Source: Spartobacteria bacterium | GTDB taxonomy: Bacteria; Verrucomicrobiota; Kiritimatiellia; RZYC01 | Assembly: GCA_009930475.1 (NCBI GenBank) | Contig: RZYC01000001.1 | Location: 17,062-81,061, forward strand | Reading direction: 5' to 3' | Length of the DNA stretch: 64,000 bases | Part shown: positions 1,180 through 48,942 of the stretch, piece by piece | Layout of the letters: the number at the start of each line of letters is the position of its first letter | Numbering within the stretch: position 1 is the stretch's first letter | Made by a program: the position numbers and the translations under genes | The notes under the pieces: generated by a model | What the model saw: only the letters and a program-made list of their open reading frames with translations | Told to the model about the DNA's origin: nothing | Databases searched by the model: none

Positions 1180-1273
1180 TTTTACTCCCCCCCCTGTGCA
1201 CCGTGCACAATAAATAGTATAGTGACAGTCACATATTAGTTGACACGAGTTCGTGAGAATGTATATTGGCTGC

Positions 1274-2272
1274 ATGAGAAGAAAACGAATAAAACGGGCG
1301 CGGTTGGCTTATTACCACTGCATGACACGTGTGGTGGGACGTCAGATGTTGCTCGGGTCGTCGGAGAAGGAACACATGCGTGTCCTTATTCGGAAGGTCG
1401 AGGGGTTTACAGGAGTCCAGGTGTTGACGTATGCGCTGATGACCAATCATATCCATTTGCTACTGAAGGAACCCGAGAGGGATACGGTGGTGGATGAGGA
1501 TGTATTGGTGGAGCGGATGAGGTCGTTGTATTCTGAGGAGGAAATGGAAGAGGTTCTGCTGCGGTGGGCGGATTGGCGAGCGCAGGGGAACAGGATTGCA
1601 GTGGAAGAGGATATGATGCGTTACAGAAGGCGAATGCATGATATCAGTGAATTTATGAAGACGTTGAAGCATCGGTTTTCATTTTGGTATAACCGCCGCA
1701 ATGATCGTAAGGGGACGCTGTGGTCTGAACGTTTTAAGAGTGTCCTCGTTGAGGGCGGAGATGCGTTGAGAACCGTGGCGGGGTACATTGAGATGAATCC
1801 GGTACGGGCGGGTTTGGCCTGTGATCCGTCGGGGTATTTGTTTTGTGGCTTGGGCGACGCAGCGGCCGGGTCGGTGAAGGCACGTGAAGGAATTATGGAA
1901 TTGGTGGTGCAGAAGAATACTTCTTTTGGGACGCATGTGGGCAAATCTTGGTGTGTTTTGTCTGCCGCCTATTTTGATGATGTGTTGATGTATGGTGGGA
2001 CATGCCCTGCCATGCATGATGCAAGCATGAAGGATGGCGGGGGGTGCCTCCAAATACAAGAGGCTGAACTATTGTATCGTAATCGTTTTTTTTCTGATGG
2101 ACAAGTTATTGGTAGCAAAAGTTTTGTTGAGGAGTTTTTTGCAGAAAACAGGGATTATTTCGGGTCACGCCGCACGTCAGGCGGTCGCAGAGTTAAAGGA
2201 ATTACACGCGGCCTGTATGCGATACGGGATGTCGGACGCATTGTCGACAAACGAAACAAACAGCTTTCGTAA
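1274..2272 (+). mobile_element. RAYT/IS200-like Y1 HUH transposase paralog 1 (about 332 aa, with a conserved C-terminal extension)
   Basis: It carries the HUH motif TNHIHLLL and the RAYT-type tyrosine motif AGYIEMNPVRAG. The start was set at the ATG (MRRKRIKR…) that matches the three other paralogs; the ORF track begins at an upstream GTG at 1253. The C-terminal block …RNRFFSDGQV.G…FVEEFF..NRDYFG…LYAIRDVGR is shared by all four copies. Confidence 0.75.
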
Positions 2273-5400: not shown

Positions 5401-5452
5401 TTCAATAACTCCATGTCGCAGACCACATGCTTTTATTTCCACTGCAAAAATT

Positions 5453-5540
5453 AAAAAGTTCCAATGATTGGAACTTTTAACTCTCTACTATTCCAATGAT
5501 TGGAACTTTTAATTTAAAAAGTTCCAATGGTTGGAACATT
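5453..5540. repeat. REP-like palindromic repeat cluster A (3 units)
   Basis: There are three units of the near-perfect palindrome AAAAGTTCCAATGATTGGAACTTTT: 5453-5478, 5491-5510 and 5517-5540. The cluster lies between the convergent dnaX and RAYT paralog 2. Confidence 0.85.
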
Positions 5541-5559
5541 GTAAATTCTTTCTATGGAT

Positions 5560-5870
5560 ATAAACTTGGCACGCCTACTGCTCCTTCAACGATGCATATT
5601 ATTTGTTCTTTAACATTAGCATTACTTAGGCTGGCAAGACCGACTGATTTATTCTCCGCCCTGAGGCTGGGGAGTGACAAGCAGGCCGCCGCAGACCCGA
5701 ACGCGCTGCAAGCCGCTTGCTCCACACACACACACCGTCACCCATAAAACAGTAAGCCAAACCAGTCTTGATTACACGTTCACGAGAAAACCTCAGCGCG
5801 TTATGCGCACTCCTTCATACACAATGCCGGGCCGGAGCGGGAATAACCCCGCCCCGGCCGGTGTCGTTTT
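5560..5870 (+). pseudogene. Diverged duplicate of the 5' region of the hsp20-like gene (relic copy of 7920-8330), including a relic sigma-54 promoter
   Basis: Nucleotide similarity of roughly 70-80% runs through 5567-5870 versus 7925-8330. For example TTGGCACGCCTACTGCT matches TTGGCACGCGTATTGCTG, and …ATGCGCACTCCTTCATACACAATGCCGGGCCGGAGCGGGAATAACCCCGCCCCGGCC matches 8262-8320. Internal stops and frame changes are present, and only short spurious ORFs (5496-5747, 5674-5994) remain. Confidence 0.45.
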
Positions 5871-5900
5871 AAGACTTGTTGTTTCTAAAATTACTCCGAC

Positions 5901-6950
5901 TCAGCACCAATGTCCCAGATCACGAATGGTATACAAGCCGTCCCACCCTCCGCGTATTTTTCGTGCTCCGGTTTTTCGTGCCGGAGCAAAATAATCCCTG
6001 TTCTCATCAAAGAACTGCTCCACAAACTCCTGAGAGCCGAAGACCTGTCCATCTGAAAAAAAACGACTCCGACATTGTAGTCGTTCGAACGAAGAGATTT
6101 TCATCCGTTTCTTTAATTTGTTTGGAATCATATTCTTATCAAGAAACGCGAAATTAGGGTTTTTACATAGCTCCTCGTACATCAATACCCGCTCCCAGTA
6201 AACATTCAAAGCCGCCGTCCATGAACCCACCTTGTCAGTCGCTCGAACCGTGTTATCCAGCTGTTTCACCCCCGATGCCAGCACCACAATCCCTCTTTGT
6301 GCGGAAAGGCTCCCGCCCATGGCCTCACCTAGCCCGCAAAAACGATATTTCTTGGGATCATCGACCATCCCCGCTCGAACCGGATTCATTTCTATATATG
6401 CCGCCATAGTACGCAGTGCCGTCCCATCCTCCACCAGTACGCTTTTAAAGCGTCGTTCCCACAAGGTTCCGCAACGGCCAGCTCTGCGATTGAACCAGCA
6501 GGAGAATCGCTGTTTCACCTGCTTCATAAACTCACTGATATCGTGCATTCGAACAAGATATCGCTGCTTATCCTCCGCAATAAAAGCTGTTAGCCCCGCC
6601 TGATCCCATGCTTGCCATCTACTACAAATTTCATCTACATCCTCTTTAGAATACAAACAGCGCAATCGATCTATCAACTGCGCATCCGTAATCAAAAGGA
6701 CGTCCGCGCGGTCTGGTTCCTCCAGCAGTAGATGGATATGATTTGTCATCAGCGCATACGTTAGAACGCGTACTCCGGAGAACCCCTCAACCCGTCGAAT
6801 CAAACGGCGCATGTGTTCTTTTTCCACAGATCCCAGCAGCATATCCCGATTCACAATGCGCGACATGCAATGATAGTAGGCCAAATGATCGCGTTTTATT
6901 CGTGTTTGTTTCATGAATCGATACAAGCATGGGAACATATATAAATGCAA
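5901..6950 (-). mobile_element. RAYT/IS200-like Y1 HUH transposase paralog 2
   Basis: MKQTRIKRDHLAYYHCMSRIV… carries the HUH motif TNHIHLLL, the tyrosine motif AAYIEMNPVRAG, and the conserved C-terminal block …SRFFSDGQVFGSQEFVEQFFDENRDYF…LYTIRDLGHWC. REP clusters flank it at 5453-5540 and 7813-7903. Confidence 0.75.
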
Positions 6951-7682: not shown

Positions 7683-7812
7683 TCATCGGGCGGGCGATTT
7701 GTCCCATGGGAGGTCGGCGGAGTGCGGGCGTTTTGGCGCACTCGGACAAAAGGCACAGCGTAATGTTTATTTTGACGGGGAGATGTTTGAGGCGGGGCTT
7801 TTTATGGAAAAT

Positions 7813-7903
7813 AAAAAGTTCCAATGATTGGAAGTTTTAACATGTTGTTTTTCCAGTGGTTGGAAGTTTTGTTTTAAAAAGTTCCAATGATTGGAACTTT
7901 TTA
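7813..7903. repeat. REP-like palindromic repeat cluster B (3 units)
   Basis: Units are at 7813-7838 (…GATTGGAAGTTTT), 7851-7870 (TTCCAGTGGTTGGAAGTTTT) and 7877-7903 (AAAAGTTCCAATGATTGGAACTTTTTAA). Confidence 0.85.
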
Positions 7904-7925
7904 ATATTTCCTCTGAGCGTGATAT

Positions 7926-7942
7926 TGGCACGCGTATTGCTG
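7926..7942 (+). promoter_or_regulatory. Sigma-54 (-24/-12) promoter for the hsp20-like gene
   Basis: TGGCACGCGTATTGCTG matches the TGGCACG-N4-TTGCW consensus, with exactly 10 nt between GG and GC. It lies about 60 nt upstream of the ATG at 8005. A degraded copy (TGGCACGCCTACTGCT) is at 5577-5592 in the duplicated segment. Confidence 0.5.
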
Positions 7943-8004
7943 TGTTGAATGTCAGATTAAAACATTAAACGAAGTACAGCAGAAAGGATTTGGGGAAAGC
8001 GGAT

Positions 8005-8754
8005 ATGCGACAGTGGAACTGGACAGCACTCATACATAGTATCACGGCAGACCGCATTGTTCTTTTTACCGTTTTAGCTTTTCAGGTTGGTTTGGCCGGC
8101 TGGTTCTATACCTACACCCGCGAGGGTGACAAACAAGCGGCCTCAGAACTGAACACACCTGACGGCCGATTGTCGATCCAACACACACAAAACGTCGCTT
8201 CTCAGCCAGTCGGTCAACCAGCCTTTTCCGATTCATCATCAGTAATACCCTCATCAATGCGCTCAATGCGCACTCCTTCACACAGTGCTGGGATGGGGCG
8301 GGTGATAACCCCGCCCCATCCTGTGGCATTAATGGATGAATCGTTTATCACTCCGATATCTTTTACGGATTCGCGCGCCGTGATGGCTCAGATGCAGGAT
8401 CGTATGCGTCGCCGGATGGAAGCGTATCAGCAGAAAAATGCTCTTATTTATTCTGATGATGACTGGTCTGGACTGGCGCGGAGTCCCACGATGGATATGC
8501 GCGAGCGAGGGGATGTCTATGAAGTCACTTTCAGTATTCCGGATGCGAAAAATCGGGATATTACCACGGATTTGCAAGATCGTCTTCTGACGGTTAATGT
8601 GAATCAATCGAATGAATTTGACAGGGGGCATGCCCAGCAGTCGTTTACCAGTCGCATCCTTCTTCCGGAAGACATTGATAGCGACAAAGCCATAGAGACG
8701 CGTTTCAAAGACGGCAATGTGATTCTGAGTATTTCCAAGTCAGCGGCGCAATAA
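8005..8754 (+). CDS. Membrane-anchored small heat-shock protein (Hsp20/alpha-crystallin family)
   Basis: The C-terminus has an alpha-crystallin-domain pattern (…RERGDVYEVTFSIPDAKNRDITTDLQDRLLTV…SFTSRILLPEDIDSDKAIETRFKDGNVILSI…). The N-terminus has a TM helix (IVLFTVLAFQVGLAGWFY) followed by a P/S-rich linker. The ORF track starts at a TTG at 7990; an ATG lies at 8005. Confidence 0.6.
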   Translation: MRQWNWTALIHSITADRIVLFTVLAFQVGLAGWFYTYTREGDKQAASELNTPDGRLSIQHTQNVASQPVGQPAFSDSSSVIPSSMRSMRTPSHSAGMGRVITPPHPVALMDESFITPISFTDSRAVMAQMQDRMRRRMEAYQQKNALIYSDDDWSGLARSPTMDMRERGDVYEVTFSIPDAKNRDITTDLQDRLLTVNVNQSNEFDRGHAQQSFTSRILLPEDIDSDKAIETRFKDGNVILSISKSAAQ

Positions 8755-29388: not shown

Positions 29389-30402
29389 ATGAGAAGAAAA
29401 CGAATCAAGCGAGACCACCTAGCGTACTATCACTGCATGTCGCGCATTGTGGGGCGAGGGATGTTACTGGGCGATGTGGAGAAAGTGCACATGTGCCGGC
29501 TTATTCGCCGTGTTGAAGGCTTTACAGGGGTTCGCGTTCTCACCTATGCGATCATGACGAATCACATTCATCTGCTGCTGGAGGAACCAGATCGTAATGA
29601 GATACATCAGATGACTCACGAAGAGCTTGTGAAGCGATTGCTGTATCTGTACTCGCAAGATGATGTCGACGAAATATGTGCTCGCTGGCGCATGTGGGAG
29701 AGGGAAGGCCTTCTGGCCCTGGTGACCGAGGACAAGCAGCGTTATTTGGTACGGATGCATGATATCAGTGAATTTATGAAACAGGTAAAACAGCGGTTAT
29801 CCTGCTGGTATAACAGAAATAACGGACGGTACGGGACGTTGTGGGATCGTCGCTTTACGAGCGTGCTGGTGGAAGATGGTGCGGCACTGCGCACGATGGC
29901 GGCGTATATCGAAATGAATCCGGTGCGGGCAGGAATGGTGGATGACCCGAAAAAGTACCAGTTCTGCGGATTTGGAGAAGCCATGGCCGGTGTAAAACGG
30001 GCGATGTGCGGCATTATGAAGCTGGCCAGCGGACTGGATTGCATGGATGATGCGGTGCGGGCTCGGGAACGGGCGGATTCATGGGATGTTGCGTCGTCGA
30101 TCTACTGGGAACGGATTTTGATGTACGATGAAGTAACGAAAAACCCTCATTTTGCGATGCTGGATATGGATATGATTCCAGATAAATTGCGTAAACGAAT
30201 GAAAATATCTGATTTTGAACGACTGCGATGTCGAAGTCGCTTTTTTTCCGACGGGCAAGTCTTTGGTTCGCGTGACTTTGTGGAAGATTTTTTTGAGCAT
30301 AATCCTGATCACTTTGGAATCACCCGCAAAACAGGTGCTCGGAAAATACGCGGAGGGTGGAACAGCCTGTACTCCCTTCGAGATCTGGGAAACTGGTGCT
30401 GA
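29389..30402 (+). mobile_element. RAYT/IS200-like Y1 HUH transposase paralog 3
   Basis: MRRKRIKRDHLAYYHCMSRIV… carries the HUH motif TNHIHLLL, the tyrosine motif AAYIEMNPVRAG, and the C-terminal block …SRFFSDGQVFGSRDFVEDFFEHNPDHF…LYSLRDLGNWC. It is about 75% identical to paralog 2. Confidence 0.75.
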
Positions 30403-36642: not shown

Positions 36643-36682
36643 TCGACATCATCGATTATACATTAAATAACAGCCTGTTATA

Positions 36683-36770
36683 AAAGTTCCAATGATTGGA
36701 TGTTTTCGTTTTAAAACTTCCAGACATTGGAACTTTTTTTCTGGAAAGTTCCAACGACTGGAACTTTTTT
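36683..36770. repeat. REP-like palindromic repeat cluster D (3 units)
   Basis: Units are at 36683-36707 (AAAAGTTCCAATGATTGGATGTTTT), 36713-36739 (AAAACTTCCAGACATTGGAACTTTTTT) and 36744-36770 (GAAAGTTCCAACGACTGGAACTTTTTT). The cluster lies between convergent gene ends. Confidence 0.85.
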
Positions 36771-37470: not shown

Positions 37471-39297
37471 TTATTCGGGCGTCTTGAGGGGAAGCCGAAT
37501 ACTGAAGGTGGTTTTGCCGGATTTGCTGGTGCAGCTCATAAGACCGTCGTGAGATTCGATGATGTGCTGGCAGATGGACAGGCCGAGGCCGGTATTGGTT
37601 TTGCCGACTTTGGTACTGAAAAAGGGATCGAATATTTTATCCATCACTTCAGGGGGGATGCCGCTGCCATTGTCAGTGACGGTAATTTCGGCGTATTGAC
37701 CGTCATTCGGACAGGTGGCGGCGATGCGGATGGTTCCACCTTCGGGGACGGCATCCCAGCTGTTGACAATGAGGTTCATCAGGACCTGTTTGAGTTTATT
37801 TTCCTGTCCGGCAATGAAGATGGCTTCGCCGGGGTCACGGATGATATTGATGTTTTTCTGCCGCAGTTTGTGGTTGAGAAGGATGAGGATATCGTCGATG
37901 AGCGGCTGGACGGCGACGCGGCGCATAACGGGTATGCGGTTGATTTTTGAAAAGGACAGGAGGCTCTCTACAATACCGGCGATGCGTTTGAGTTCGGCGT
38001 CCACCTTTTCCAGTTTTCGGAGAGAATCTTCGTCCTGCATTTTCCGGCGCATGATGGCGACATAATTACTGATGATGCCCAGAGGGTTATTGATTTCATG
38101 AGCAACACCGGCGGCCAGTTCGGCGATGGATTCGATTTTTTGTGAGCGAAGCAGGTATTCATTAACCTGACGGTCACGCGTGATATCTTCGAAGATGATA
38201 ATGGTTCCGAGATAGCGGTCGTTTTCGTCTTTAAAGGGTCCGATGTGAATGCGCAGGTATTTATTATCGCCATGTTTGAATTCGTCCCATGATTTCTCTG
38301 TTCGCTCATCGATGGCCTTCATCAGTTCGGCCGCCTGTTCCGTGATTTCTCCGTCGGCATCTTTGGGAACGATCGCATCCATCGTCAGATTCATGATTCG
38401 GTCCTGATCGATTTCCAGGATTGCGGATGCGGCATAATTGGTAAGATAGACATGGTTCTTTTCGTCGAGAATCACGATGCCTTCAGGGATATTTTTAATG
38501 ATATCTTCGTTGTATTTTTTGAGCAGAAACAATTCCCGGTTGTGATGTTCCAGTTCTTCGCGCGACATAACAAAGGAATAGGTGAGCTTGATAAGCTTCA
38601 CCTTATCGATATCCTGAATTTCCTCGGTTCCGATATTACGTCCGTTCTGCATGATGGTGACACGATCGGCGAGGTCAAATATCTCGTTCATGTTGTGCGT
38701 AATATAAATCACACTGCGTCCCTGGTGGCGCAGACCGAACAGCAGTTTATAAACGCGCTCCATTTCCACCGGCGTAAGCTTAAAGGATATCTCATCGAAA
38801 ATGATCACTTCAGGATGATTAATCAGCACTTTTGCCAGTTCCACCATATGCTGATCGGCCTGCGGCATCAGGCTGAGAGGGATATTGAGATCGAGATCGA
38901 TTCCTAATGAATCCAGCAGCTGCTGCGCTTCTTTCTCCATGACACGCCGTCGCACGCCACCCCACCAGTAGCGCTTAAAATATCCGGCATACATATTCTC
39001 CACCGCATCCAGCGCATTGATCACGTTATTATGCTGATAGAACATGCTGATGCCGTCGCGCATGGCGGTATGCGGCGTGAAATAAGGCATATCAACGCCG
39101 CGATAATAGATCAGACCTTTTTTCATGCGCACTGCACCGCTGAGCACCTTGACGAGGGTGGATTTTCCGGAACGGTGTTCGCCGACAAGACCGTGAATTT
39201 CACCTTTCCGAAGATCAAAATCCACGCCCTTCAGCACCTGTGTGGTGCCGTAATTCACATGAATATTGCGCATCTGCACAATAAGGTCGGATGTCAT
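37471..39297 (-). CDS. Cytoplasmic sensor histidine kinase with an N-terminal ABC-transporter ATP-binding domain (NBD-PAS-HisKA-HATPase_c fusion)
   Basis: Residues 1 to about 240 carry the Walker A motif GEHRSGKST, a Q-loop, a degenerate signature LSLMPQADQHMVELAKVL, the Walker B motif VIIFDEIS and the H-loop YITHNMNE. This region is most similar to the N-terminal half of CUT2 sugar ABC ATPases such as the neighbour at 45117-46607. A PAS-like region follows, then an H-box AHEINNPLG, then HATPase_c (…DNGSGIPPEV…GLGLSICQ…). No TM helices are present. The start overlaps the response-regulator stop (ATGA). Confidence 0.8.
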   Translation of the reverse strand: MTSDLIVQMRNIHVNYGTTQVLKGVDFDLRKGEIHGLVGEHRSGKSTLVKVLSGAVRMKKGLIYYRGVDMPYFTPHTAMRDGISMFYQHNNVINALDAVENMYAGYFKRYWWGGVRRRVMEKEAQQLLDSLGIDLDLNIPLSLMPQADQHMVELAKVLINHPEVIIFDEISFKLTPVEMERVYKLLFGLRHQGRSVIYITHNMNEIFDLADRVTIMQNGRNIGTEEIQDIDKVKLIKLTYSFVMSREELEHHNRELFLLKKYNEDIIKNIPEGIVILDEKNHVYLTNYAASAILEIDQDRIMNLTMDAIVPKDADGEITEQAAELMKAIDERTEKSWDEFKHGDNKYLRIHIGPFKDENDRYLGTIIIFEDITRDRQVNEYLLRSQKIESIAELAAGVAHEINNPLGIISNYVAIMRRKMQDEDSLRKLEKVDAELKRIAGIVESLLSFSKINRIPVMRRVAVQPLIDDILILLNHKLRQKNINIIRDPGEAIFIAGQENKLKQVLMNLIVNSWDAVPEGGTIRIAATCPNDGQYAEITVTDNGSGIPPEVMDKIFDPFFSTKVGKTNTGLGLSICQHIIESHDGLMSCTSKSGKTTFSIRLPLKTPE

Positions 39298-40616
39298 AAC
39301 GCCATATCCAGCTTTTTCATACGGTTGTACAGCGTACGACGACTGATATTCAGGATATCGGCGGCCTTCTGTTTGACACCGCCGCTGCGTTCCAGTGCAT
39401 CTTCGATCATGGAACGACTTAACCGTTCGAAGGCATTTTCATAGGACTCCAATTCATCCTGCTGAAGCAGTTTGGTATATTGCGCGGCCAGATGTTCCGG
39501 CTCAATCAACGGCTTTTCACAGAAAATAACCGACCGCTCAATACAGTTCTTGAGTTCACGGACATTGCCCGGCCAGGTATGGACGCGGATGATCTCCTCC
39601 ACAGAAGGTGAGACGCCCTGAATATTTTTGCCATACACCTTGTTGTACTGCTCGATGAAATAACGGGTCAGCATCATGGCATCATCGGTGCGGTCACGCA
39701 GTGGCGGCAGGTGCAGCGTAATAACGGACAGCCGGTAATACAAATCCTCACGAAACCGCTGGTCTTCGATCAATTCATCCAGATCCTGATGGGTTGCAGC
39801 AATGATGCGGATATCGGTCTTGATGGTTTTATTTCCCCCGACTTTTTCGAATTCCTGTTCCTGAATCACCCGCAGAATTTTTGCCTGGGTTTTCAGACTC
39901 ATATCGCCGATTTCATCCAGAAACAGCGTGCCGCCATTGGCCATCTCGAAGCGCCCAATGCGTTCTTTTATCGCGCCGGTGAAGGCACCTTTTTCATGAC
40001 CGAACAATTCACTTTCCAAGAGTTCGTCGGGAATGGCGGCGCAGTTGATCTTGATAAACGGGGCATCGCTGCGCCGGCTCATCTGCTGGATCGCTCTCGC
40101 CACCAGTTCCTTCCCCGTTCCGCTTTCGCCGGTAATAAGAACCGGAGCATCGGTGGGGGCGGCCTTATCGAGCAGCGACAATACTTTTCTCATCTTCGCA
40201 TCATAAGTAACAATGCCGCCCTGCGGCAGATGAACTCGACCGCCTGCCTGCACCGCCTGTCGGGCATGTTCCCCTATTTCCTGCAGCAGCTGATCGAGAT
40301 CAATGGGTTTGGTATAGACGTTGACGGCACCATAACGCATGGCAAGGACGACATCCTGCACAGTGGGATATCCTGTCATCATCGTTACCGGTAAATCCGA
40401 GGCGATGGACTTGATTTTCTGCAGCAGTTCCACGCCGCCCATTTCAGGCATACGAATATCCAGCATCACCATATCGTAGTTGGTTACCGCGATTTTACCC
40501 AGTGCTTCGGACGGGTGCATGGTCCAGTCCGCGATCATGCCTTCGGATTCCAGCAGTTCCGAAAGCGAGCGGCACATTTCTTCTTCGTCATCCACAATAA
40601 GAATGCGGTAATTCAT
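39294..40616 (-). CDS. Sigma-54-dependent response regulator (NtrC family: REC-AAA+-HTH)
   Basis: The REC domain has a phospho-acceptor Asp (MNYRILIVDDEEE…VMLDIRMPEMGG). The AAA+ sigma-54 activator domain has GESGTGKE, GAFTGA and ESELFGHEKGAFTGA. A C-terminal Fis-type HTH is present. A GAGG RBS precedes the start. Confidence 0.85.
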   Translation of the reverse strand: MNYRILIVDDEEEMCRSLSELLESEGMIADWTMHPSEALGKIAVTNYDMVMLDIRMPEMGGVELLQKIKSIASDLPVTMMTGYPTVQDVVLAMRYGAVNVYTKPIDLDQLLQEIGEHARQAVQAGGRVHLPQGGIVTYDAKMRKVLSLLDKAAPTDAPVLITGESGTGKELVARAIQQMSRRSDAPFIKINCAAIPDELLESELFGHEKGAFTGAIKERIGRFEMANGGTLFLDEIGDMSLKTQAKILRVIQEQEFEKVGGNKTIKTDIRIIAATHQDLDELIEDQRFREDLYYRLSVITLHLPPLRDRTDDAMMLTRYFIEQYNKVYGKNIQGVSPSVEEIIRVHTWPGNVRELKNCIERSVIFCEKPLIEPEHLAAQYTKLLQQDELESYENAFERLSRSMIEDALERSGGVKQKAADILNISRRTLYNRMKKLDMAL

Positions 40617-40664
40617 AGTTAAAACCTCAATTTGAGACACAGATTAACGCTTTTGTGCCCCTTT

Positions 40665-43631
40665 TTAAAAGTTCCAATCATTGGAACTTTTTTCCGGAAA
40701 CCTTCCAATCATTGGAAGTTTTTTTGCTGAAAGTTCCAATGGTTGGAACTTTTCAGCTTCGTGCGCTGCGGCACATTTGAAGCGCGAAATAAGTTCTGTC
40801 AGCTGCGTCGACTGGTGATCAAGGGTTCCTGCGGTCTGAGCCGTTTCATCGGCACCGGCCATGGTTTGCTGGGTGACCTGATCAATCTGTTCCATTCCGA
40901 TCTGAATCTGACTCACGGCCTCGGCCTGTTCGCGGGATGCATCGGCTATATGCTGTACATGTTCGGACGACTTGGAAATACCGCCTACCATGGACTGGAA
41001 TGTTGCGGAAACAGCATGGACGGATTGCTGTCCGGCTTCCACACGGTTCACCGTTTCGTCGATGAGTTCAGCCGTTTCTTTGGCCGCTTTTGCACTGCGT
41101 CCGGCCAGGTTGCGTACTTCATCGGCCACGACCGCAAAGCCTTTGCCGTAGGTTCCGGCGCGGGCGGCTTCGACGGCGGCGTTCAACGCAAGCAAATTGG
41201 TCTGAAAGGCAATGTCGTCGATGACTTTATTGATCTTGGCTATTTGCTGACCCGATTCCTGGATGGCCTGCATGGCCTGCCCCATCATTTCAATTTCTTT
41301 TTCACCCACGCCGGCACTGCGCTGCACCGAAGCGAATTCACGGGAGGCCACATGGGCTTCATTGGCATTTTCATTGGCCTGATGGGATATCTGCGTCATG
41401 GAACTGCTGATTTCCTGCAGGGAAGAGGCCTGACGGGTAGCGCCCTCAGCCAGCTGCTGACTTGCATCATTAATCTGCTGTGCTCCTTCATGAACCTGTC
41501 CCGCCGTATCCGAGACCTGACTCAGGGCCTCACTCAAGTTGTCGAGCATGGAGTTAACATTTGCCTTAAGTTCCGCCAGCCGCCCGTTGTATTCACCGTT
41601 TACACGGATGGTTAAATCGTTTTCTGCCGCCGCGTTCAGTGCGTTGGCCGTTTCATCCAGTGGATCAATAACCGCATCCATGGTGTGATTGATGCCTTCC
41701 ACGATCTGACGGAAGGCCCCTTCATGATTTTCAGGGTCGGCCCGGAAAGACAAATCGCCTGACTGGCCGGCCTCGGCCAGCTGCTGTACATCCTGAATGA
41801 GCAGTCCGATGGCACCGATACATTGATTGATATCGTTCTTCAGTGTCTCGAATTCTCCCTTGAAATCGGCGGCAATGGGCTCGGGCAAAATGCCCGAACC
41901 CAATGCACGGATGCACGCAGCCGCTTTAGTTAGGGGAACGGAGACGGCATCAAGATTGGCATTAAATTCTTCAATGATCGTACAAAAAACGCCGCGATGA
42001 CCGGAGGCATCGGCTCGAACCTGTAATTGACCGGCTATCCCCGCTCTGGCCAGCGATTCGACGTCGGTGATCATATTTTCCAGCGACTCCATCATGGCGA
42101 TAAAACTGGGGGTAAGTCGATCGGCCTCGGATAATTTGCCCATTTCACGATAGGCGGCAAGATCTTCCAGACTGCCTTCGGCGATATGCTCGGCTGTATG
42201 CTGCAGCAGCAGAAAACGATCGCGCAAGTTATTGGCGGCCTTCGCAATCAGCAGATAATCGCCCGTACAGTTTTCGTCCATAGAGCCGGTCATATCATTG
42301 ACAGACAACCGTTCCATCATGCCGATCGCGTTATGAACGGGCGTGGCTACTTTGTCCATCATCTGATTCATGCGCTGGACCATTTCCTGAAAGACGCCAT
42401 CGAATGCTGACACGTTGCCGCGATAGGATAATTCACCCTGCTCGCAGGCCTGAGTCAGCTCTCCAACCTGCCCGATAATCGAGCGAAGGGTCTCTACAAT
42501 AGAACCGAAGGCTCCATATATCCGGCCGATTTCATCACGGCTTGAAGTCGTCAAATCAATATCAATATTACCATTGCGAATATGCCCCGCTGCATCGACC
42601 AATGCACGGATGGGACCAATTATACGACGAATCATGATACCTGCCAAAAAAATGGAAAGGATCAGACCTCCACATAACAGCAGCCCCATGTTGCGGATAC
42701 TGGTTCTGCTCATGGCTGCATCCGCCTCTGCAGCCTGCGCCGCAATATCCGAGCTGGTCTGGGCGACGGTGCGAGCCTTGTCGATGATCTCCTGTGAAAG
42801 GCTGCTCATCCTGGCCACATGGGATGCAAGGGTAACCGTGGTATCCATGCAGGTCTGTACGTTTTTCACGAAATTCATGACCTCTTTCTGCTGCCCGTCT
42901 ATGGCGGCAAGCATACTCCGGTTTCCCGTCTCTTTCTTCAATTCATCCAGCAGCGGTTCCACTGAAAGAGCGGTGGCCTCAGCCAGCTTCCCCATGTCTG
43001 GCTGCTGCGTATGGATGAACTGCATCAACTGCACCTGTGCCTGATTGATCGTGGCGGCAATTTGCTGAATGATATTCATCTGCGTGATGCGAATATCGAT
43101 CACTCTGCGATCGTAATCATAATCCAGTGCTTCGGTAAGTCTTTCTTCTGCATCAACTTTCTGCTTTGCTGCGCTGTCCGTTACCAGTGTTGCGGTTTTG
43201 GCGGCCTGTGCTGCGGCATCACTGCGCTCCGAGACCAGATCAGCGCACTCAATGTATAAATTCCGGTAATCCTTTTCCGCAGTCATCGCGGCCCGAATTA
43301 TCCCTTCCAGCTGTGTCAGTTCCATACTGGCTGCCAGAGAATCCAGCGAGGTCAGTCCTGCGCGCACCGCATCCAGTGCCGTGACACCTCTGTCATGGAC
43401 AGACGGATTTTGTTCCAATAAATAGCGTTTTTCACTGATAAGCACCTGTCCGACATGACTCTCCACTTCAAAGGCATCTTGTTGAAGAACATATGTGCGG
43501 GTTGTCAGCTGGTTGATTTCTTCGCTGAGGCGTACCACCCCGCTAATGCCCATCGCCCCAATGAGCATCGCCACCAATGTGCTTACCGCGAAACCAATCA
43601 CAATCTTGCTTTTTATCGAAACAGTTATCAT
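40665..43631 (-). CDS. Methyl-accepting chemotaxis protein with a periplasmic sensor domain and a multi-HAMP array
   Basis: It has two TM helices, several HAMP-like repeats, and a conserved MCP signalling domain (…[21 protein letters not shown]…[46 protein letters not shown]). A GGAGG RBS lies 9 nt before the chosen ATG (MITVSIK…). The last 30 codons are REP-derived. Confidence 0.85.
40667..40754. repeat. REP-like palindromic repeat cluster E (3 units, opposite orientation, centre base C)
   Basis: Units are at 40667-40693 (AAAAGTTCCAATCATTGGAACTTTTTT), 40698-40725 (AAACCTTCCAATCATTGGAAGTTTTTTT) and 40729-40754 (GAAAGTTCCAATGGTTGGAACTTTTC). The cluster lies inside the 3' end of the MCP reading frame. 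Confidence 0.85.
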
Positions 43632-43654
43632 ATCCGCCATCCTCCTTATGTGTG

Positions 43655-43692
43655 CAAAAAAATCAACCGGTTCGGAACGATGTCCGAACCGG
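43655..43692 (-). terminator. Rho-independent terminator after sugar ABC operon 1
   Basis: A hairpin CCGGTTCGGAACGATGTCCGAACCGG is followed on the minus strand by a U-run (A-run at 43655-43664 on the plus strand), 16 nt after the permease stop. Confidence 0.45.
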
Positions 43693-43707
43693 CTCCCGGC
43701 ATTAATC

Positions 43708-45105
43708 CTATTGATTAGTCGCCTTGTCACCTTGAAGCATTTTAAGAACACTGCTCATTTTCCACCCCTGTTTCTTAAGCATGTCCAGCAGCACCGCACC
43801 AAGGATCACCAGTCCCAGCACGACCATCTGCGTATAACTTTCCACACCCGTCAGATTCATCCCGTTCTGAATCACCGCAATAATAAACGATCCAATCAGC
43901 GTGCCAAGAATCTTTCCTTCGCCGCCCGCCAGACTGGTCCCGCCGACCACGACCGCCGCAATGACATACATTTCATAGCCAACACCATAGGTAGGTGCGC
44001 CGCTCTTGAGCTGTGAGGCCAGAATAATACCGCCGAACCCGGAAAGCAGTCCGCAGAGGATATAAACGAACATCAGAACTTTATTGACGGGAACGCCTGA
44101 CAGACGAGCCGCTTCTTTATTGCCGCCAACCGCGTAGATATAACGACCTAACACCGTGCGCGTCATCAGAATATGCGCTGCGGCATAGAGAATGATAAGC
44201 AGCCAGACGGTATTGGGAATGCCAAACAATCCCATGCTGCGTCCCAGCCAGGTGATACTGTCCGGCACCTGATAAATCGACTGTCCATCGGCAAAAATGA
44301 AGGCAAATCCACGGGCGACCATCATCATGGCTAACGTCACAATAAAGGGAGGAATCATAAATTTTGTGACCATGAATCCCGAAAAACAACCGGAAAGACC
44401 GCTCATCACCATCGCCACCATGGCAAAAAAGACCATGGCCATCACACCGGCATCTTCACCGCCTCCGTATTTACGAATCATTAACGTCCAGACCACCGCC
44501 GACAGGGCAATCATACTGCCCACCGACAATTCGATTCCCGTCGTGATGATCACCATAGTCATACCAATGGCGATCACAGCAATCACAACAATGCGGTCGG
44601 CGATGGCCAGTAGATTGGATTTTTTGAGGAAATCAGGATAGTTATAAGGCTCCGGTTTGATGATCGTCACCGCGCTGTAACTGGCGTTTTCCTCTCCCAT
44701 TTTAGAAAGATATTTCCAGTTGGCTGAATCCTGAGAACCGATGATCACATCGACAGTCCCCGCTTCGCCGTATTTGATCAGATCTTTCTTCACTCCCGGA
44801 GGAGTGCCCTGGAACAACGCAACTTTGGCTGCCCCTTTGGCCTTCATCTGTTTTTCAACGGCCTGACCAAAAGCCATATCATCTTTTCCTCTGGTCGTGA
44901 TAATGGCGAAATTCGCTGATTTACCGAACTGGCTCAGTGCCGTTTTCACCATCGGCCCCGCCGCGTCCAGTCCCTGCGGCGACTGCTCTTTCAGCGTTGC
45001 CAGACTGTAGTAGCCGCACAGCAGCAGCAATACAAAAATAATCCCGTAATCGGCGAAAAACCGCCGCATCCATAGTGAGCCCTTTGATGTCTTTTCTTTG
45101 TTCAT
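43708..45105 (-). CDS. Sugar ABC transporter permease (CUT2/ribose-xylose-galactoside type, BPD_transp_2) with a large periplasmic insertion
   Basis: It is 465 aa with about 10 TM helices and a roughly 130-aa hydrophilic domain after TM1. The conserved CUT2 loop region is present (…[24 protein letters not shown]…). A TAAGGAG RBS precedes the start. Confidence 0.8.
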
Positions 45106-45116
45106 TGTGTTTCTCC

Positions 45117-46607
45117 TTAAACGACTGCTAATTCCATAATTTGTTCCTGAGTGGCATTCTTTACATCGGTTATTTCTCCGGTGATACGACCGCCATGCAT
45201 AACCAGAATGCGTGTACTCAAACCTAAGATTTCGGGCATTTCTGAACTGATCAATATGATCACTTTGCCGGCATCCGCCAATTCGTTAATAATCTGGTAA
45301 ATTTCAAATTTGGCTCCCACATCAATTCCGCGGGTCGGTTCGTCAAAGATTATGACGTCAAAGTCACGATACAGCCACTTGGCTAAAACGACTTTTTGCT
45401 GATTCCCGCCAGAAAGGTTGCCCGCTAATGCCTCATTGGTCGGTATTTTTATCGACAGGCTCTTGACGAATTTAGAGAATTCCTTGTCCTCTTTTTTCAG
45501 ATTGATAAATCCTTTGCGGGACAAACGATCGAAATTCGGCAATCCAAAATTATCACGCACTGAATTTCCCATCACCAGACCTTCCAGTTTGCGATGCTCG
45601 GACACCAACAGGATCCCGTTGTCGATTCCATCTCTGGCCGATTTAATTTTAAGCGGTTTGCCGTCGAGCAGCAGCGTTTTGTATTCGCCCTTGTCTGCTC
45701 CGCAAAAAATGCGAACCGATTCACTGCGACCCGCCCCCACCAGACCCGTCAACCCCAGGATTTCGCCGGCACGCACCGTCATCGATACATCGTGCACCCA
45801 TTTCGGCCGATTCAATCCCGTGACTTCCAGACGAACGTCGCCGATTTTTGGATTTTTTCGAACGGGAAATTCATTTTCAAGTTTTCGTCCCACCATCATC
45901 TCGATAAGTCGTTCCCTCTTCAGCTCTTTCGTCGGCTTCGTGCCCACATATTCGCCGTCGCGCATCACCATCACCTGATCTGAAATCTGGAATATTTCGT
46001 CCATGCGATGACTGATGTAAATAATGCCAATGCCTTGCTTTTTCAGGTCGTTGATAATCACAAATAATTTGGACACTTCCTGATTCGTCAATGCGGCGGT
46101 CGGTTCATCCATCACCAGAATTTTTGCCTGCAGCGACAAGGCCTTGGCAATTTCAACCACCTGCTGCTGCGCCACCGTTAAATCCCGGCACGGTACATTC
46201 GGCGGAATATTGATACCAATGCGATAGAACAGCGCCATGGCCTGTCTGTATTCGTTCAGCATCCGAATAAATCCCCAGTTATGTACTTCGCGCCCCAAAA
46301 AAATATTTTCGCAGGCCGATAAAGCAGGTATCAAATTGAATTCCTGGTAAATAATGCCGATTCCATTTTTCTGTGCATACGCCGGTGTCGGAATGGATAC
46401 CGGTTTGCCTTGCACCTCTATGTGACCGCTATCCGGCTGATACGCTCCACCCAAAACCTTCATCAAGGTACTTTTCCCTGCCCCGTTTTCCCCCATAAGT
46501 GCCAGGACTTCTCCGGAACGAAGCATCAAATCAATCCCATTTAAGGCTTTGACTCCAGGGAACGTCTTCACAATGTTTTTCATCGTTAGTAAAATCTCGC
46601 CCGCCAT
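45117..46607 (-). CDS. Sugar ABC transporter ATP-binding protein (two fused NBDs, RbsA/MglA/XylG-like)
   Basis: The first NBD has Walker A GENGAGKST and the signature LTVAQQQVVEIAKAL. A second NBD follows (…LSGGNQQKVVLAKWL…IIFDEPTRGIDV). The product is 496 aa, and an AAGGAGG RBS precedes the start. Confidence 0.85.
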   Translation of the reverse strand: MAGEILLTMKNIVKTFPGVKALNGIDLMLRSGEVLALMGENGAGKSTLMKVLGGAYQPDSGHIEVQGKPVSIPTPAYAQKNGIGIIYQEFNLIPALSACENIFLGREVHNWGFIRMLNEYRQAMALFYRIGINIPPNVPCRDLTVAQQQVVEIAKALSLQAKILVMDEPTAALTNQEVSKLFVIINDLKKQGIGIIYISHRMDEIFQISDQVMVMRDGEYVGTKPTKELKRERLIEMMVGRKLENEFPVRKNPKIGDVRLEVTGLNRPKWVHDVSMTVRAGEILGLTGLVGAGRSESVRIFCGADKGEYKTLLLDGKPLKIKSARDGIDNGILLVSEHRKLEGLVMGNSVRDNFGLPNFDRLSRKGFINLKKEDKEFSKFVKSLSIKIPTNEALAGNLSGGNQQKVVLAKWLYRDFDVIIFDEPTRGIDVGAKFEIYQIINELADAGKVIILISSEMPEILGLSTRILVMHGGRITGEITDVKNATQEQIMELAVV

Positions 46608-46697
46608 GATATCCTCCTTTTGCGACTCGCGCCGTTTCGTTGTTTTATTCTGAAAAGAAGGGCCATACCTTTCGGCATGGCCCTTAGGAGGAGGAGA

Positions 46698-47627
46698 CTA
46701 TTTTACGGAAGGATCTTTGTCCGCATCTGCTTTTTTGTACAAGCCGGTGGGAATCAATACAACCGATTTAACATCGTCGCCATCGAGATATTTCATGATC
46801 GTTTTTACAGTGATCTGACCGATTTTGCTCGGGAACTGGATTGGATCAGCATAGATACGACCGTCTTTGATCGCTTTTTTGCCTTCAGGAGCACCGTCAA
46901 AACCAACAATAACCACGTCACGTTCTGCTATTTCAGCTGCAGCTACAACACCCAAAGCAGAAGGATCGTTGATAGCAAATACACCGTCCAGATTCGGATA
47001 GGCCTGAAACACTTCTTTGGCGACAGAAAAACTGATGTCCTTGCTGCCGCGACCAGGCCATGCGCCCACGATTTCAATATCCGCATTCTGATCTTTGATT
47101 TCGTCTTTGAATCCCTGGGTTCTCATGATCACAGATTCCACTTCAGGATGGTCAATGATAGCCACGGTGCCCTTACCGTTCAGCGCTTCAATCATGGCGC
47201 GACCAGCCTGACGACCACCTTCGTAGTTGTCTGTTGCAATATGCGTAACAACCGGAGCACCGCCCAGAGCAGCAATGTCAGCAGTAAAGACAGGAATACC
47301 AGAGTCAGCCGCTTTTTGAATCGCAGGACCAATCGCTTTTGAATCAGCAGGATTCAAAATAATCGCAGAAACTTTTTTCGTAATGAAATCGTTGACCTGA
47401 TTGTTCTGCATTGCCGGGTCAAATTCAGAACTCACGATGATTGTGTCATATCCGCTTTTCGCCGCTTCTGCTGTCACACTGTCTGCCATTTCTTTGAAGA
47501 ACGGATTCTGCAAGGTCAGCACCGACATACCGATCGTGCCATTCGATGCCAGCGCATCAAATGCCAAACCCGTCACGCAGCATGCTGCCATAGCCCAAGA
47601 CATCCATTTTCTTTTATTACTATTCAT
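46698..47627 (-). CDS. Sugar ABC transporter periplasmic substrate-binding protein (RbsB-like, Peripla_BP_1)
   Basis: A signal peptide is followed by a type I periplasmic binding fold (…IGMSVLTLQNPFFKEMADSVTAEAAKSGYDTIIVSSEFD…). The start was set at ATG (MNSNKRKW…) with an AGGAG RBS. Confidence 0.8.
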   Translation of the reverse strand: MNSNKRKWMSWAMAACCVTGLAFDALASNGTIGMSVLTLQNPFFKEMADSVTAEAAKSGYDTIIVSSEFDPAMQNNQVNDFITKKVSAIILNPADSKAIGPAIQKAADSGIPVFTADIAALGGAPVVTHIATDNYEGGRQAGRAMIEALNGKGTVAIIDHPEVESVIMRTQGFKDEIKDQNADIEIVGAWPGRGSKDISFSVAKEVFQAYPNLDGVFAINDPSALGVVAAAEIAERDVVIVGFDGAPEGKKAIKDGRIYADPIQFPSKIGQITVKTIMKYLDGDDVKSVVLIPTGLYKKADADKDPSVK

Positions 47628-47698
47628 ATCCAACTCCTAGTTTTGACATGGTTTCTTAACGTTGTTACAACTGCACTTTCGCAGCCGACAATCAACAT

Positions 47699-47715
47699 CG
47701 CATGTAGTGTGCCAA
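47699..47715 (-). promoter_or_regulatory. Candidate sigma-54 promoter for sugar ABC operon 1
   Basis: On the minus strand the sequence reads TGGCACACTACATGCG, with exactly 10 nt between GG and GC. It lies about 72 nt upstream of the substrate-binding-protein ATG. The -12 element (ATGC) is imperfect. Confidence 0.3.
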
Positions 47716-47873
47716 CCATTTCTAATAAAAGCAATGCACTTGTTATCCATTGCAAAACAGGACGATACACAACACGCCGTTCTCGCCGCATTACCACCGG
47801 CGATCGCCCCCACCGTGAAAATCCGTTCCCACAACTGTGCAATCATATGTGCACAATGAAATGGAAGGGAAAT

Positions 47874-47970
47874 AGTGACAGACACATAAATATTGACTTG
47901 CGATAGGGATTGTATACAGGGAAAGAGTGACAGACACATAAATATTGACTTGCGATAGGGATTGTATACA
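47874..47970. repeat. Tandem direct repeat (2 x 45 bp, 7-bp spacer) immediately upstream of RAYT paralog 4
   Basis: AGTGACAGACACATAAATATTGACTTGCGATAGGGATTGTATACA occurs at 47874-47918 and again, identically, at 47926-47970. The unit is related to the region upstream of paralog 1 (…AGTGACAGTCACATATTAGTTGACACGAG…, 1221-1250). Confidence 0.8.
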
Positions 47971-47979
47971 TTGGATGGC

Positions 47980-48942
47980 ATGAGAAGAAAAAGGATAAAG
48001 CGAGAACGGTTGGCTTACTACCATTGCATGACACGTGTGGTGGGTCGTCAAATGCTGCTGGGATCGGTGGAGAAGGAGCACATGCGTGTGCTGATTCGAA
48101 AAATTGAGGGGTTTACGGGGGTTCGGGTTTTGACTTATGCGCTGATGACAAATCATATTCATTTGCTGTTGGAAGAGCCGGATCGGGCGACGGTGGTAGA
48201 GGATGATGTGTTGGTGGAGCGAATGCGTGCGCTGTATTCGGATGCGGAAATGGAGGAGATTCTGTTGCGGTGGGCGGATTGGCTGGACCAGGGGAATGTG
48301 GCTGCGGTGGAGAATGATAAGCATCTTTACAGAAGAAGGATGCATGATATCAGCGAATTCATGAAGACGTTGAAACATCGGTTTTCATTTTGGTATAATC
48401 GGTTGCATGATCGCAAGGGGACATTGTGGTCGGAACGGTTTAAGAGTGTGCTGGTTGAGGGCGGAAATGCTTTGAGGACCGTGGCGGCGTATATTGAGAT
48501 GAATCCGGTACGGGCGGGTTTGTCATGTGATCCGTCGGAATATCCATTTTGCGGACTTGGTGACGCTGTGACTGGGTCGGGCGCGGCGAAAGATGGTATT
48601 ATGGAGCTGGTGGTTCAAAAGAATGCGGCTTTTGGAATACATGCAGTAGAGCACTCATGGGACGTTCTGTCGGTTGTCTACTTTGATGACGTATTGATGT
48701 ACGGGCGAGCAAAGAGTGACGGGCAACCTCTTGAGCCGGCGGTGGAGTTGTTGTGTCGCAATCGCTTTTTCACTGACGGGCAGGTTCTTGGAGGTAGGGA
48801 TTTCGTTGAGGAATTTTTTCGAGCAAACAGAGCGTATTTTGGACCGCAGAGAGTGGCAGGCGGTCGCAAAGTTAAGGGATGGACGGGATGTCTTTATGCG
48901 ATCCGAGATGTGGGACGAAGTGCGGACGTGCCCAAGAAATAG
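47980..48942 (+). mobile_element. RAYT/IS200-like Y1 HUH transposase paralog 4
   Basis: MRRKRIKRERLAYYHCMTRVVGRQMLLGS… carries the HUH motif TNHIHLLL, the tyrosine motif AAYIEMNPVRAG and the conserved C-terminal block. It is about 80% aa-identical to paralog 1. The ATG start was chosen; the ORF track starts at a TTG at 47962. Confidence 0.75.

Follow-up and report, generated by a model that had tools for sequence, protein, structure and literature searches.

The gene for a methyl-accepting chemotaxis protein (MCP) in a 64,000-nucleotide stretch of a metagenome-assembled genome (MAG) deposited as 'Spartobacteria bacterium' (contig RZYC01000001.1; the whole stretch is called the window below) runs at its 3' end through a cluster of three palindromic repeat units, array c4, and the final ~28 residues of the encoded protein are a direct translation of this genuine copy of a multi-copy palindromic repeat. 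We consider it likely that the resulting tail is a tolerated by-product of an array lying on the 3' end of the gene, made possible by the single stop-capable frame of the repeat unit together with a unit period of the form 3n+1. The features concerned are as follows.

40665..43640, minus strand: MCP gene, encoding 991 amino acids from the NCBI start, assigned by its Pfam domains and corresponding to NCBI protein NCD31832.1.
40665-40667, minus strand: MCP stop codon TAA, in the A/T-rich flank directly beyond the last unit.
40668..40775, minus strand: C-terminal tail of the MCP, 36 codons after ...LISRFK, from direct reading; homology to other MCPs stops at the RFK-type motif.
40667..40759, no strand assigned: array c4, three 31-nt units (40667-40697, 40698-40728 and 40729-40759), from the repeat search.
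40671-40687, 40702-40718 and 40733-40749: palindromic cores of c4, GTTCCAATCATTGGAAC, CTTCCAATCATTGGAAG and GTTCCAATGGTTGGAAC, from the repeat search.
40733..40749, minus strand: first unit met by the MCP frame, read TTC CAA CCA TTG, where a canonical centre would read TTC CAA TGA.

The MCP contains a HAMP domain, three HAMP_2 domains and an MCPsignal domain (Pfam), the last of which occupies residues 810-960 of the open reading frame (ORF); the longest ORF extends over 40665..43751 on the minus strand, and the start annotated at NCBI corresponds to 43640. An earlier reading of the sequence alone (the sequence-only reading) had proposed that the MCP frame crosses all three units of c4 without a stop and that three peptides of the tail are each the translation of a repeat core. 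Direct reading of the minus strand confirmed the first point, and the second held codon by codon: the unit at 40733 reads AAG TTC CAA CCA TTG GAA (KFQPLE), the unit at 40702 reads AAA CTT CCA ATG ATT GGA (KLPMIG), and the unit at 40671 reads AGT TCC AAT GAT TGG AAC TTT (SSNDWNF). The repeat-encoded part of the tail, its final ~28 codons, lies at about 40668-40754.

A canonical unit can present a stop codon in one frame only, in which the centre of the dyad supplies a TGA (..TTC CAA TGA TTG..); the other two frames (..TCC AAT GAT TGG.. and ..CCA ATG ATT GGA..) never hold a stop, and the single possible stop disappears altogether when the unit centre is a C. The MCP enters its first unit in the stop-capable frame, at a unit whose centre is the variant CCA. 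Because the period of 31 nt equals 3n+1, successive units are read in successive frames, and the second and third units of the MCP fall in the two stop-free frames before TAA is reached in the A/T flank. We propose that c4 is one copy of a class-wide, multi-copy family of palindromic arrays in intergenic DNA that would usually abut the stop of the upstream gene. With such an array at the MCP 3' end, the variant centre and the 31-nt period would let translation reach the TAA and add ~28 residues. The tail would then be a tolerated and probably disordered appendix, at a place where MCPs naturally carry unstructured linkers, and not an adapted domain.

The window holds 12 units of the family in four three-unit clusters (21 strand-matches with at most two mismatches, against 0.13 expected), a density of four arrays per 64 kb. 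The core of c4 spans 40671-40749, and the other three clusters are these.

5451..5541, no strand assigned: array c1, three units (core span 5458-5537).
7811..7901, no strand assigned: array c2, three units (core span 7818-7897), paralogous with c1 in a ~500-nt segmental duplication.
36678..36768, no strand assigned: array c3, three units (core span 36686-36764), between convergent ORFs and 44 nt past the stop of a plus-strand oxidoreductase gene.

Arrays c3 (36678-36768) and c4 (40663-40753) are 78% identical, including their second spacer, and lie in direct orientation on either side of a ~4 kb response regulator–histidine kinase gene pair; this likeness may reflect duplication or recombination at the arrays.

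The core of each unit is a 17-nt perfect dyad, TTCCAAT-S-ATTGGAA, which extends to ~23-25 nt with its A/T flanks, and a position-frequency table of 373 units (+/-16 nt) gives the symmetric consensus AAwT-TTCCAAT-S-ATTGGAA-AwTT. The family-wide counts given here (143 arrays, 373 units, their spacings and their neighbours) are among the matches listed. Spacing between units has two modes, 31-32 nt (181 cases) and 21-22 nt (23 cases), corresponding to three or two helical turns. Paired units were found at no fewer than 120 loci (two-unit pattern, one genome per species), and complete arrays of two or more units in at least 39 genomes, labelled Kiritimatiellia, Kiritimatiellales, Pontiellaceae, Tichowtungia, Lentisphaerae or Verrucomicrobiota, or simply as bins. 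Nine chance matches in Streptococcus, Bacteroidetes and other taxa served as an internal negative control, and none of them has a second complete unit. In bin-1020, 58 arrays occur in 263 kb of loci that were chosen for containing arrays. Most arrays lie between ORFs, in tandem (68), convergent (16) or divergent (17) gaps, so that divergent gaps are not avoided, as far as approximate gene calls can tell. The neighbouring genes are functionally unrelated, some of them housekeeping genes, and include those for Phe-tRNA synthetase, shikimate dehydrogenase, RuvB, glycogen synthase, CoaBC and MurJ. Apart from the present MAG and a second one labelled 'Spartobacteria' (RZZM01), the family was seen in Kiritimatiellia-type genomes, and the 'Spartobacteria' label of the MAG is probably wrong.

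The sequence-only reading had called these units REPs (repetitive extragenic palindromic elements), a name that stands in the broad sense of REP-like (PMC12306157). The unit is a short palindrome able to form a stem-loop, and its many copies are predominantly extragenic, properties that it shares with the REPs and bacterial interspersed mosaic elements (BIMEs) of Proteobacteria, which carry GTAG or CGTC tags and are associated with REP-associated tyrosine transposases (RAYTs) (PMC3733652, PMC2817692, PMC12306157). Like our arrays, REPs and BIMEs are also often clustered, often lie near gene 3' ends and occur occasionally within genes. In the strict sense the name does not apply. No GTAG or CGTC tag appears in the position-frequency table of 373 units, and the units are perfectly symmetric, apart from the centre base, and strictly phased at 31-32 or 21-22 nt, in apparent contrast to the alternating orientations of REPs and BIMEs; the core is conserved over a whole class, whereas REPs are species-specific; and no RAYT flanked by units was found. 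A string search of the literature for the motif returned nothing relevant, and no paper on Kiritimatiellia repeats was found, so this tagless, symmetric, helically phased and class-wide family appears to be undescribed in the literature searched.

Four Y1/HUH transposase-like paralogues of ~330 amino acids in the window bear on the question of a RAYT.

1253-2272, plus strand: Y1/HUH transposase-like gene.
5901-6950, minus strand: Y1/HUH transposase-like gene.
29389-30402, plus strand: Y1/HUH transposase-like gene.
47962-48942, plus strand: Y1/HUH transposase-like gene.

The four proteins are 54-71% identical to one another and have an HUH motif (NHIHLLL), a YIEMNPV motif and a long C-terminal extension. 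Roughly 80 or more paralogues are present in this MAG (EOL87_ locus tags), at 48-77% identity and none nearly identical, so that the family looks like a massively expanded and possibly domesticated one rather than an active insertion sequence; two of its members are mis-annotated at NCBI as 'chemotaxis protein CheW'. Only one of these four genes has an array on either side, at distances of 364 and 868 nt and inside the segmental duplication, a proximity expected by chance because of the roughly 80 or more paralogues. Searches of ~930 kb of array-bearing DNA from other genomes (tblastn, and a hidden Markov model (HMM) of the four paralogues) gave two weak matches, neither flanked by arrays, and the NCBIfam RAYT model scored 63.7, under its cut-off of 80. 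A RAYT link was rejected, as no association emerged from tblastn, from the HMM run against all loci or from a census of the family.

Gene ends elsewhere also meet arrays. In three genes of other genomes the first unit is entered in the frame used by the MCP, and its central TGA serves as the stop codon, so that each protein ends ...FQ*.

L060, ~2680: CoaBC gene.
L064, ~7171: gene for a DinG-like helicase.
L006, ~2602: gene for a Cache-SpoIIE phosphatase, the domain of which ends seven residues ahead of the ...FQ* stop.

Another MCP (locus L023) has a normal end, ...VSGFQV*, followed ~40 nt later by an array. For 3' ends that point towards an array, the median distance from the stop is 26 nt, and of 103 ORFs 19 terminate within the array or past it, values that are approximate given that flanking genes in other genomes were called by ORF length and G+C content at third codon positions, with no trained gene finder. 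Frames that are open throughout are not rare: 7 of the 24 through the four clusters of the window are open, and three-unit arrays elsewhere have 53% open frames, compared with 60% in random segments of equal length. Because arrays abut gene ends and open frames are common, genes run into arrays repeatedly, and statistically this is unremarkable.

Units are also translated inside genes. For this comparison, ORFs that span an array were kept only where Pfam domains lie on both sides, most other spanning ORFs being spurious. One such location is the following.

L105 2228-2273 and L121 4216-4261, in two Kiritimatiellales MAGs: two-unit array in frame inside TrpF (phosphoribosylanthranilate (PRA) isomerase).

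This array reads ...VVQIHLSSNDWKIDRPIFHGLEVW... and lies within a single PRAI domain match. An indel and a supposed second array in the same pair of loci proved to be unrelated to the repeat family. A Dna2-like helicase (L110) carries an in-frame array in its AAA_12 region, in a variable linker of no greater length than in Dna2, and in a large surface protein (L057) the array lies between PA14 and PATR domains. The peptides FQ(S/P)LE, SN(D/H)WK and P(M/I)IGK recur among the translated arrays.

In these respects the family resembles the Rickettsia palindromic elements (RPEs) and other intragenic miniature inverted-repeat transposable elements, which likewise place a palindromic repeat in frame in unrelated genes and give rise to recurrent, tolerated peptides (PMC10969869); here the unrelated hosts are the MCP, TrpF and the Dna2-like helicase. 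RPEs are single elements of ~100-150 bp that are inserted as extra length (PMC10969869), whereas the present units measure 17-25 bp, are grouped in phased arrays mostly at gene ends, and add no length to the host protein in TrpF or in the helicase. The closest precedents are REPs near or inside genes and the Rickettsia RPEs (PMC3733652, PMC10969869).

The MCP gene lies in an operon-like series in the order sugar ABC transporter, MCP, response regulator (RR) and histidine kinase (HK), with c4 at the 3' end of the MCP gene.

39294..40616, minus strand: NtrC-type, sigma-54-dependent RR (Pfam Response_reg, Sigma54_activat and HTH_8; gene call in L001).
37471..39297, minus strand: HK (Pfam: ABC-ATPase-like N-terminus, PAS, HisKA and HATPase).

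The start codon of the RR lies 48 nt beyond the MCP stop. The sequence-only reading had placed the cluster across the space in front of the RR-HK pair and suggested that it may carry or disrupt their promoter. Of the ~160 nt that separate the K codon closing the signalling domain (40776-40778) from the RR start (40616), the array does take up the greater part. No sigma-70 or sigma-54 promoter was detected by scanning in or after c4, and no canonical terminator was found at c4, the one weak plus-strand match being antisense to the operon and at the level of shuffled sequence; an Rfam scan returned only sub-threshold look-alikes of miRNA hairpins. The RNA of 40640-40800 folds into one long hairpin in which unit 3 pairs with unit 1 and unit 2 forms the tip, with a minimum free energy of -58.1 kcal/mol against -32.6 +/- 3.6 for shuffles (z = -7.0), and this hairpin is located within the last 30 codons of the MCP. 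In the fold, the MCP ...RFKCA codons also show an 11-bp complementarity to sequence immediately beyond the array; it was considered as a remnant terminator and may be due to chance.

The most economical reading of this arrangement would be that MCP and RR-HK are co-transcribed across a structured element. The main effect of c4 is then probably exerted at the level of nucleic acid, by a ~40-bp hairpin between MCP and RR-HK. A REP that lies no more than ~15 nt from a stop codon influences translation of the gene before it, and ribosome stalling has been reported (summarised in PMC12306157). By analogy, the hairpin, which ribosomes must melt, could act as a 3' exonuclease barrier or a partial decoupler of expression and, as REPs do, could lend stability to the mRNA upstream of it or lower expression downstream. 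The HK belongs to a widespread family (best match 57% identical; a ~605-amino-acid architecture with thousands of matches, including some in Spirochaetia and Vecturithrix); the invariable partner of this architecture is an NtrC-type RR, and in locus L128 a sugar ABC transporter is its neighbour. Relatives of the RR-HK pair in other taxa (at most 57% identity) are normally preceded by an ordinary terminator and have no arrays; beyond this and the neighbourhood in L128 they are uninformative on c4.

Several observations weigh against the view that the tail is a by-product of an array lying on the gene end. When aligned to Thermotoga TrpF (1DL3/1LBM), the TrpF array takes the place of a helix-coding segment without changing its length, the difference over the array being a single residue and a residual similarity persisting, and a TrpF array that brings no gain in length would fit poorly with a simple insertion model for the family. 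Because both the TrpF and the helicase arrays show no length gain, units are not always simple insertions. The array-to-stop distances given above are approximate by virtue of the gene calls behind them, and the suggested roles in RNA are drawn by analogy with REPs. Finally, the collections searched hold no MCP orthologue to show the ancestral C-terminus or protein-level selection on the tail: a search of 5.8 billion proteins returned the MCP itself plus matches of at most 32% identity, two homologues checked for gene context were not syntenic (the nearest being 32% identical), a metagenome scan found no relative, and two further members of its protein cluster were unrelated fragments. As claimed in the sequence-only reading, an insertion may plausibly have replaced the original stop codon, but simple insertion is not the only route.

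The alternative that survives best holds that the arrays, rather than being selfish or mobile REPs, are double-stranded DNA sites under selection to bind a conserved Kiritimatiellia protein, a dimer with a nucleoid-organising or similar role, with the MCP tail as collateral; we regard this as possible, if on balance doubtful. The helical phasing of the units speaks for it, as does a core that is invariant in genomes from ~50 to >60% G+C while the spacers vary. The centres of neighbouring units are not preferentially complementary (GG+CC 65 versus GC+CG 39, with no excess of inverted pairs), which argues that long hairpins are not selected. Arrays are kept at orthologous positions between genomes only ~70% identical in DNA, the TrpF units occur without a change in length, and the family has neither a tag nor a linked transposase. 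Set against these points, no candidate protein is known, the copy number is high and the context indiscriminate, the spacers within one genome share a loose pattern (49% alike versus 32% when shuffled) that suggests copying, and assemblies are interrupted at arrays in the way familiar from dispersed repeats. Because the TrpF and helicase units are not simple insertions, the DNA motif itself may be under selection. Tentatively, then, the family might consist of class-wide phased binding arrays, and the MCP tail and the TGA-terminated genes might be footprints of DNA-level selection that overrides protein-coding optimality.

It is much less probable that the tail is functional, that is, a flexible linker of ~36 residues co-opted from the repeat, with the aromatic end NDWNF tethering CheR or CheB. 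The sequence-only reading had held that MCPs normally end shortly after the signalling domain, which is wrong for this family: homology among the C-termini of homologues stops at a ...(L/V)xxF(K/R) motif, and at least 12 of the 39 homologues listed have tails of 30-90 residues beyond the RFK-type end, finishing in DWEEF, EWEEF, GWEEF, DWKEF or EFERY-type motifs. Judged from these homologues, a tail as such is not abnormal in this MCP family. About 10% of all MCPs carry a C-terminal linker of ~35 residues plus a pentapeptide, with a linker of ~35 residues in E. coli, and the accepted criterion for the tether is a C-terminal xZxxZ, where Z is F, W or Y (PMC7390727). The present tail resembles such NWETF-type appendices in its 36 residues, a length compatible with the linker, in its prolines and charged residues, and in its aromatic W-x-F end. 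Its last five residues, N-D-W-N-F, nevertheless have D at position 2 and miss xZxxZ by one register; the DNA is a canonical copy of the repeat with no sign of protein-driven divergence, in contrast to a pentapeptide conserved as protein; and the peptides SNDWK/N, FQSLE and PMIGK recur wherever any ORF traverses an array.

A still smaller chance attaches to the idea that the palindromes are enhancer sites (upstream activating sequences) for a sigma-54 activator, possibly the adjacent NtrC-type RR, at which three dimers on one face of the DNA would nucleate a hexamer for regulation of RR-HK, the MCP 3' end merely overlapping them. Sites of the NtrC family are likewise 17-bp dyads ~31-32 bp apart on one helix face, and paired sites three helical turns apart are found at glnAp2. 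Three dyads of 17 bp per cluster at 31 nt, or three helical turns, suit this idea, as do the position of c4 directly upstream of a gene for a bacterial enhancer-binding protein and the positions of c1 and c2, each of which is followed after ~38 bp by a good -24/-12 promoter (TGGCACGCCTACTGCT at 5567 and TGGCACGCGTATTGCT at 7926). However, c1 and c2 belong to one ~500-nt segmental duplication and make a single independent case, and no -24/-12 promoter follows c4 or c3, the GG-GC spacing of GGGGCACAAAAGCG after c4 being wrong. A loose sigma-54 motif occurs within 150 bp of 5 of the 143 arrays against ~2.5 expected, and two of the five are c1 and c2. Among 108 genes with an array-facing 5' end no Pfam family is enriched (maximum three members), which leaves no coherent regulon; arrays also lie in convergent gaps and inside genes, unlike NtrC-family enhancers; and the sigma-54 promoter of the sugar ABC operon itself has different upstream dyads, TGTGCA-N8-TGCACA. 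The enhancer reading was rejected on the grounds of the c1/c2 duplication, the lack of enrichment, the lack of a regulon and the different dyad of the ABC operon.

The weakest alternative, that an error of sequencing or assembly at a repeat produced the read-through, is extremely unlikely: short-read assemblies do break at c4 (Logan contigs L001 and L002 end at 40691, while L123 equals 40664-47903 of the window), but contigs from two sequencing runs (SRR8327731 and SRR8327730), built with a different assembler, are exact substrings of the window across c4, with agreement over 40664-40691 plus the whole MCP, and the NCBI protein is identical to the 991-residue MCP. A false read-through caused by sequencing error, which the sequence-only reading had named as a possible refutation, was thus checked against independent contigs and the NCBI protein, and a local error is unlikely because all of these agree.

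Some further features of the window touch on sigma-54 and on duplication. The segmental duplication comprises 5430-6010 and 7790-8480 (~500 nt, 72% identical). It takes in an array together with a sigma-54 promoter and the 5' portion of an Hsp20-type gene; its first copy is cut short where it meets the Y1-transposase-like gene at 5901-6950, and the palindromes are better conserved than their flanks. In the second copy, the perfect sigma-54 promoter TGGCACGCGTATTGCT (7926-7941, plus strand) stands ahead of an Hsp20/alpha-crystallin gene (7990-8754), which implies sigma-54-dependent expression of a heat-shock protein. Another sigma-54 promoter, TTGGCACACTACATGCG (47699-47714, minus strand), lies ~65 nt upstream of a sugar-binding-protein gene (46698-47633); the dyads upstream of it at 47760-47860, TGTGCA-N8-TGCACA and GCAATG-N11-CATTGC, probably represent the genuine enhancer sites at which the adjacent NtrC-type regulator acts. 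Some ~250 nt ahead of the MCP start, the permease gene contains in its 3' end a near-consensus -24 element with a defective -12 (TGGCACGCTGATTGGA, 43891-43906, minus strand), which may serve as an internal promoter or may match by chance. Between the upstream region of the ABC operon and the start of a Y1-transposase-like gene, a 52-nt tandem duplication (47866-47969) is 98% identical, and the Logan contig breaks inside it, at 47903.

If, as we think likely, the MCP tail arose as a by-product of the array on the 3' end of the gene and is tolerated, the consequence for the chemoreceptor is probably small: an extra floppy tail at a place where one is tolerated, and a strong hairpin before the two-component genes. 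The larger consequence concerns a poorly studied class, in which the repeat family shapes gene ends, supplying stops (...FQ*) and, where a unit has lost its central TGA, lengthening proteins; it can also reside within essential enzymes. One stop-capable frame combined with a 3n+1 period amounts to a rule by which an array can be 'invisible' to translation. For annotation, C-terminal extensions containing FQSLE, SNDWK or PMIGK in these genomes should be taken as repeat-derived. Should it be true that the phased arrays bind a protein, they would represent a new chromosome-level system in the Planctomycetes-Verrucomicrobia-Chlamydiae (PVC) superphylum.

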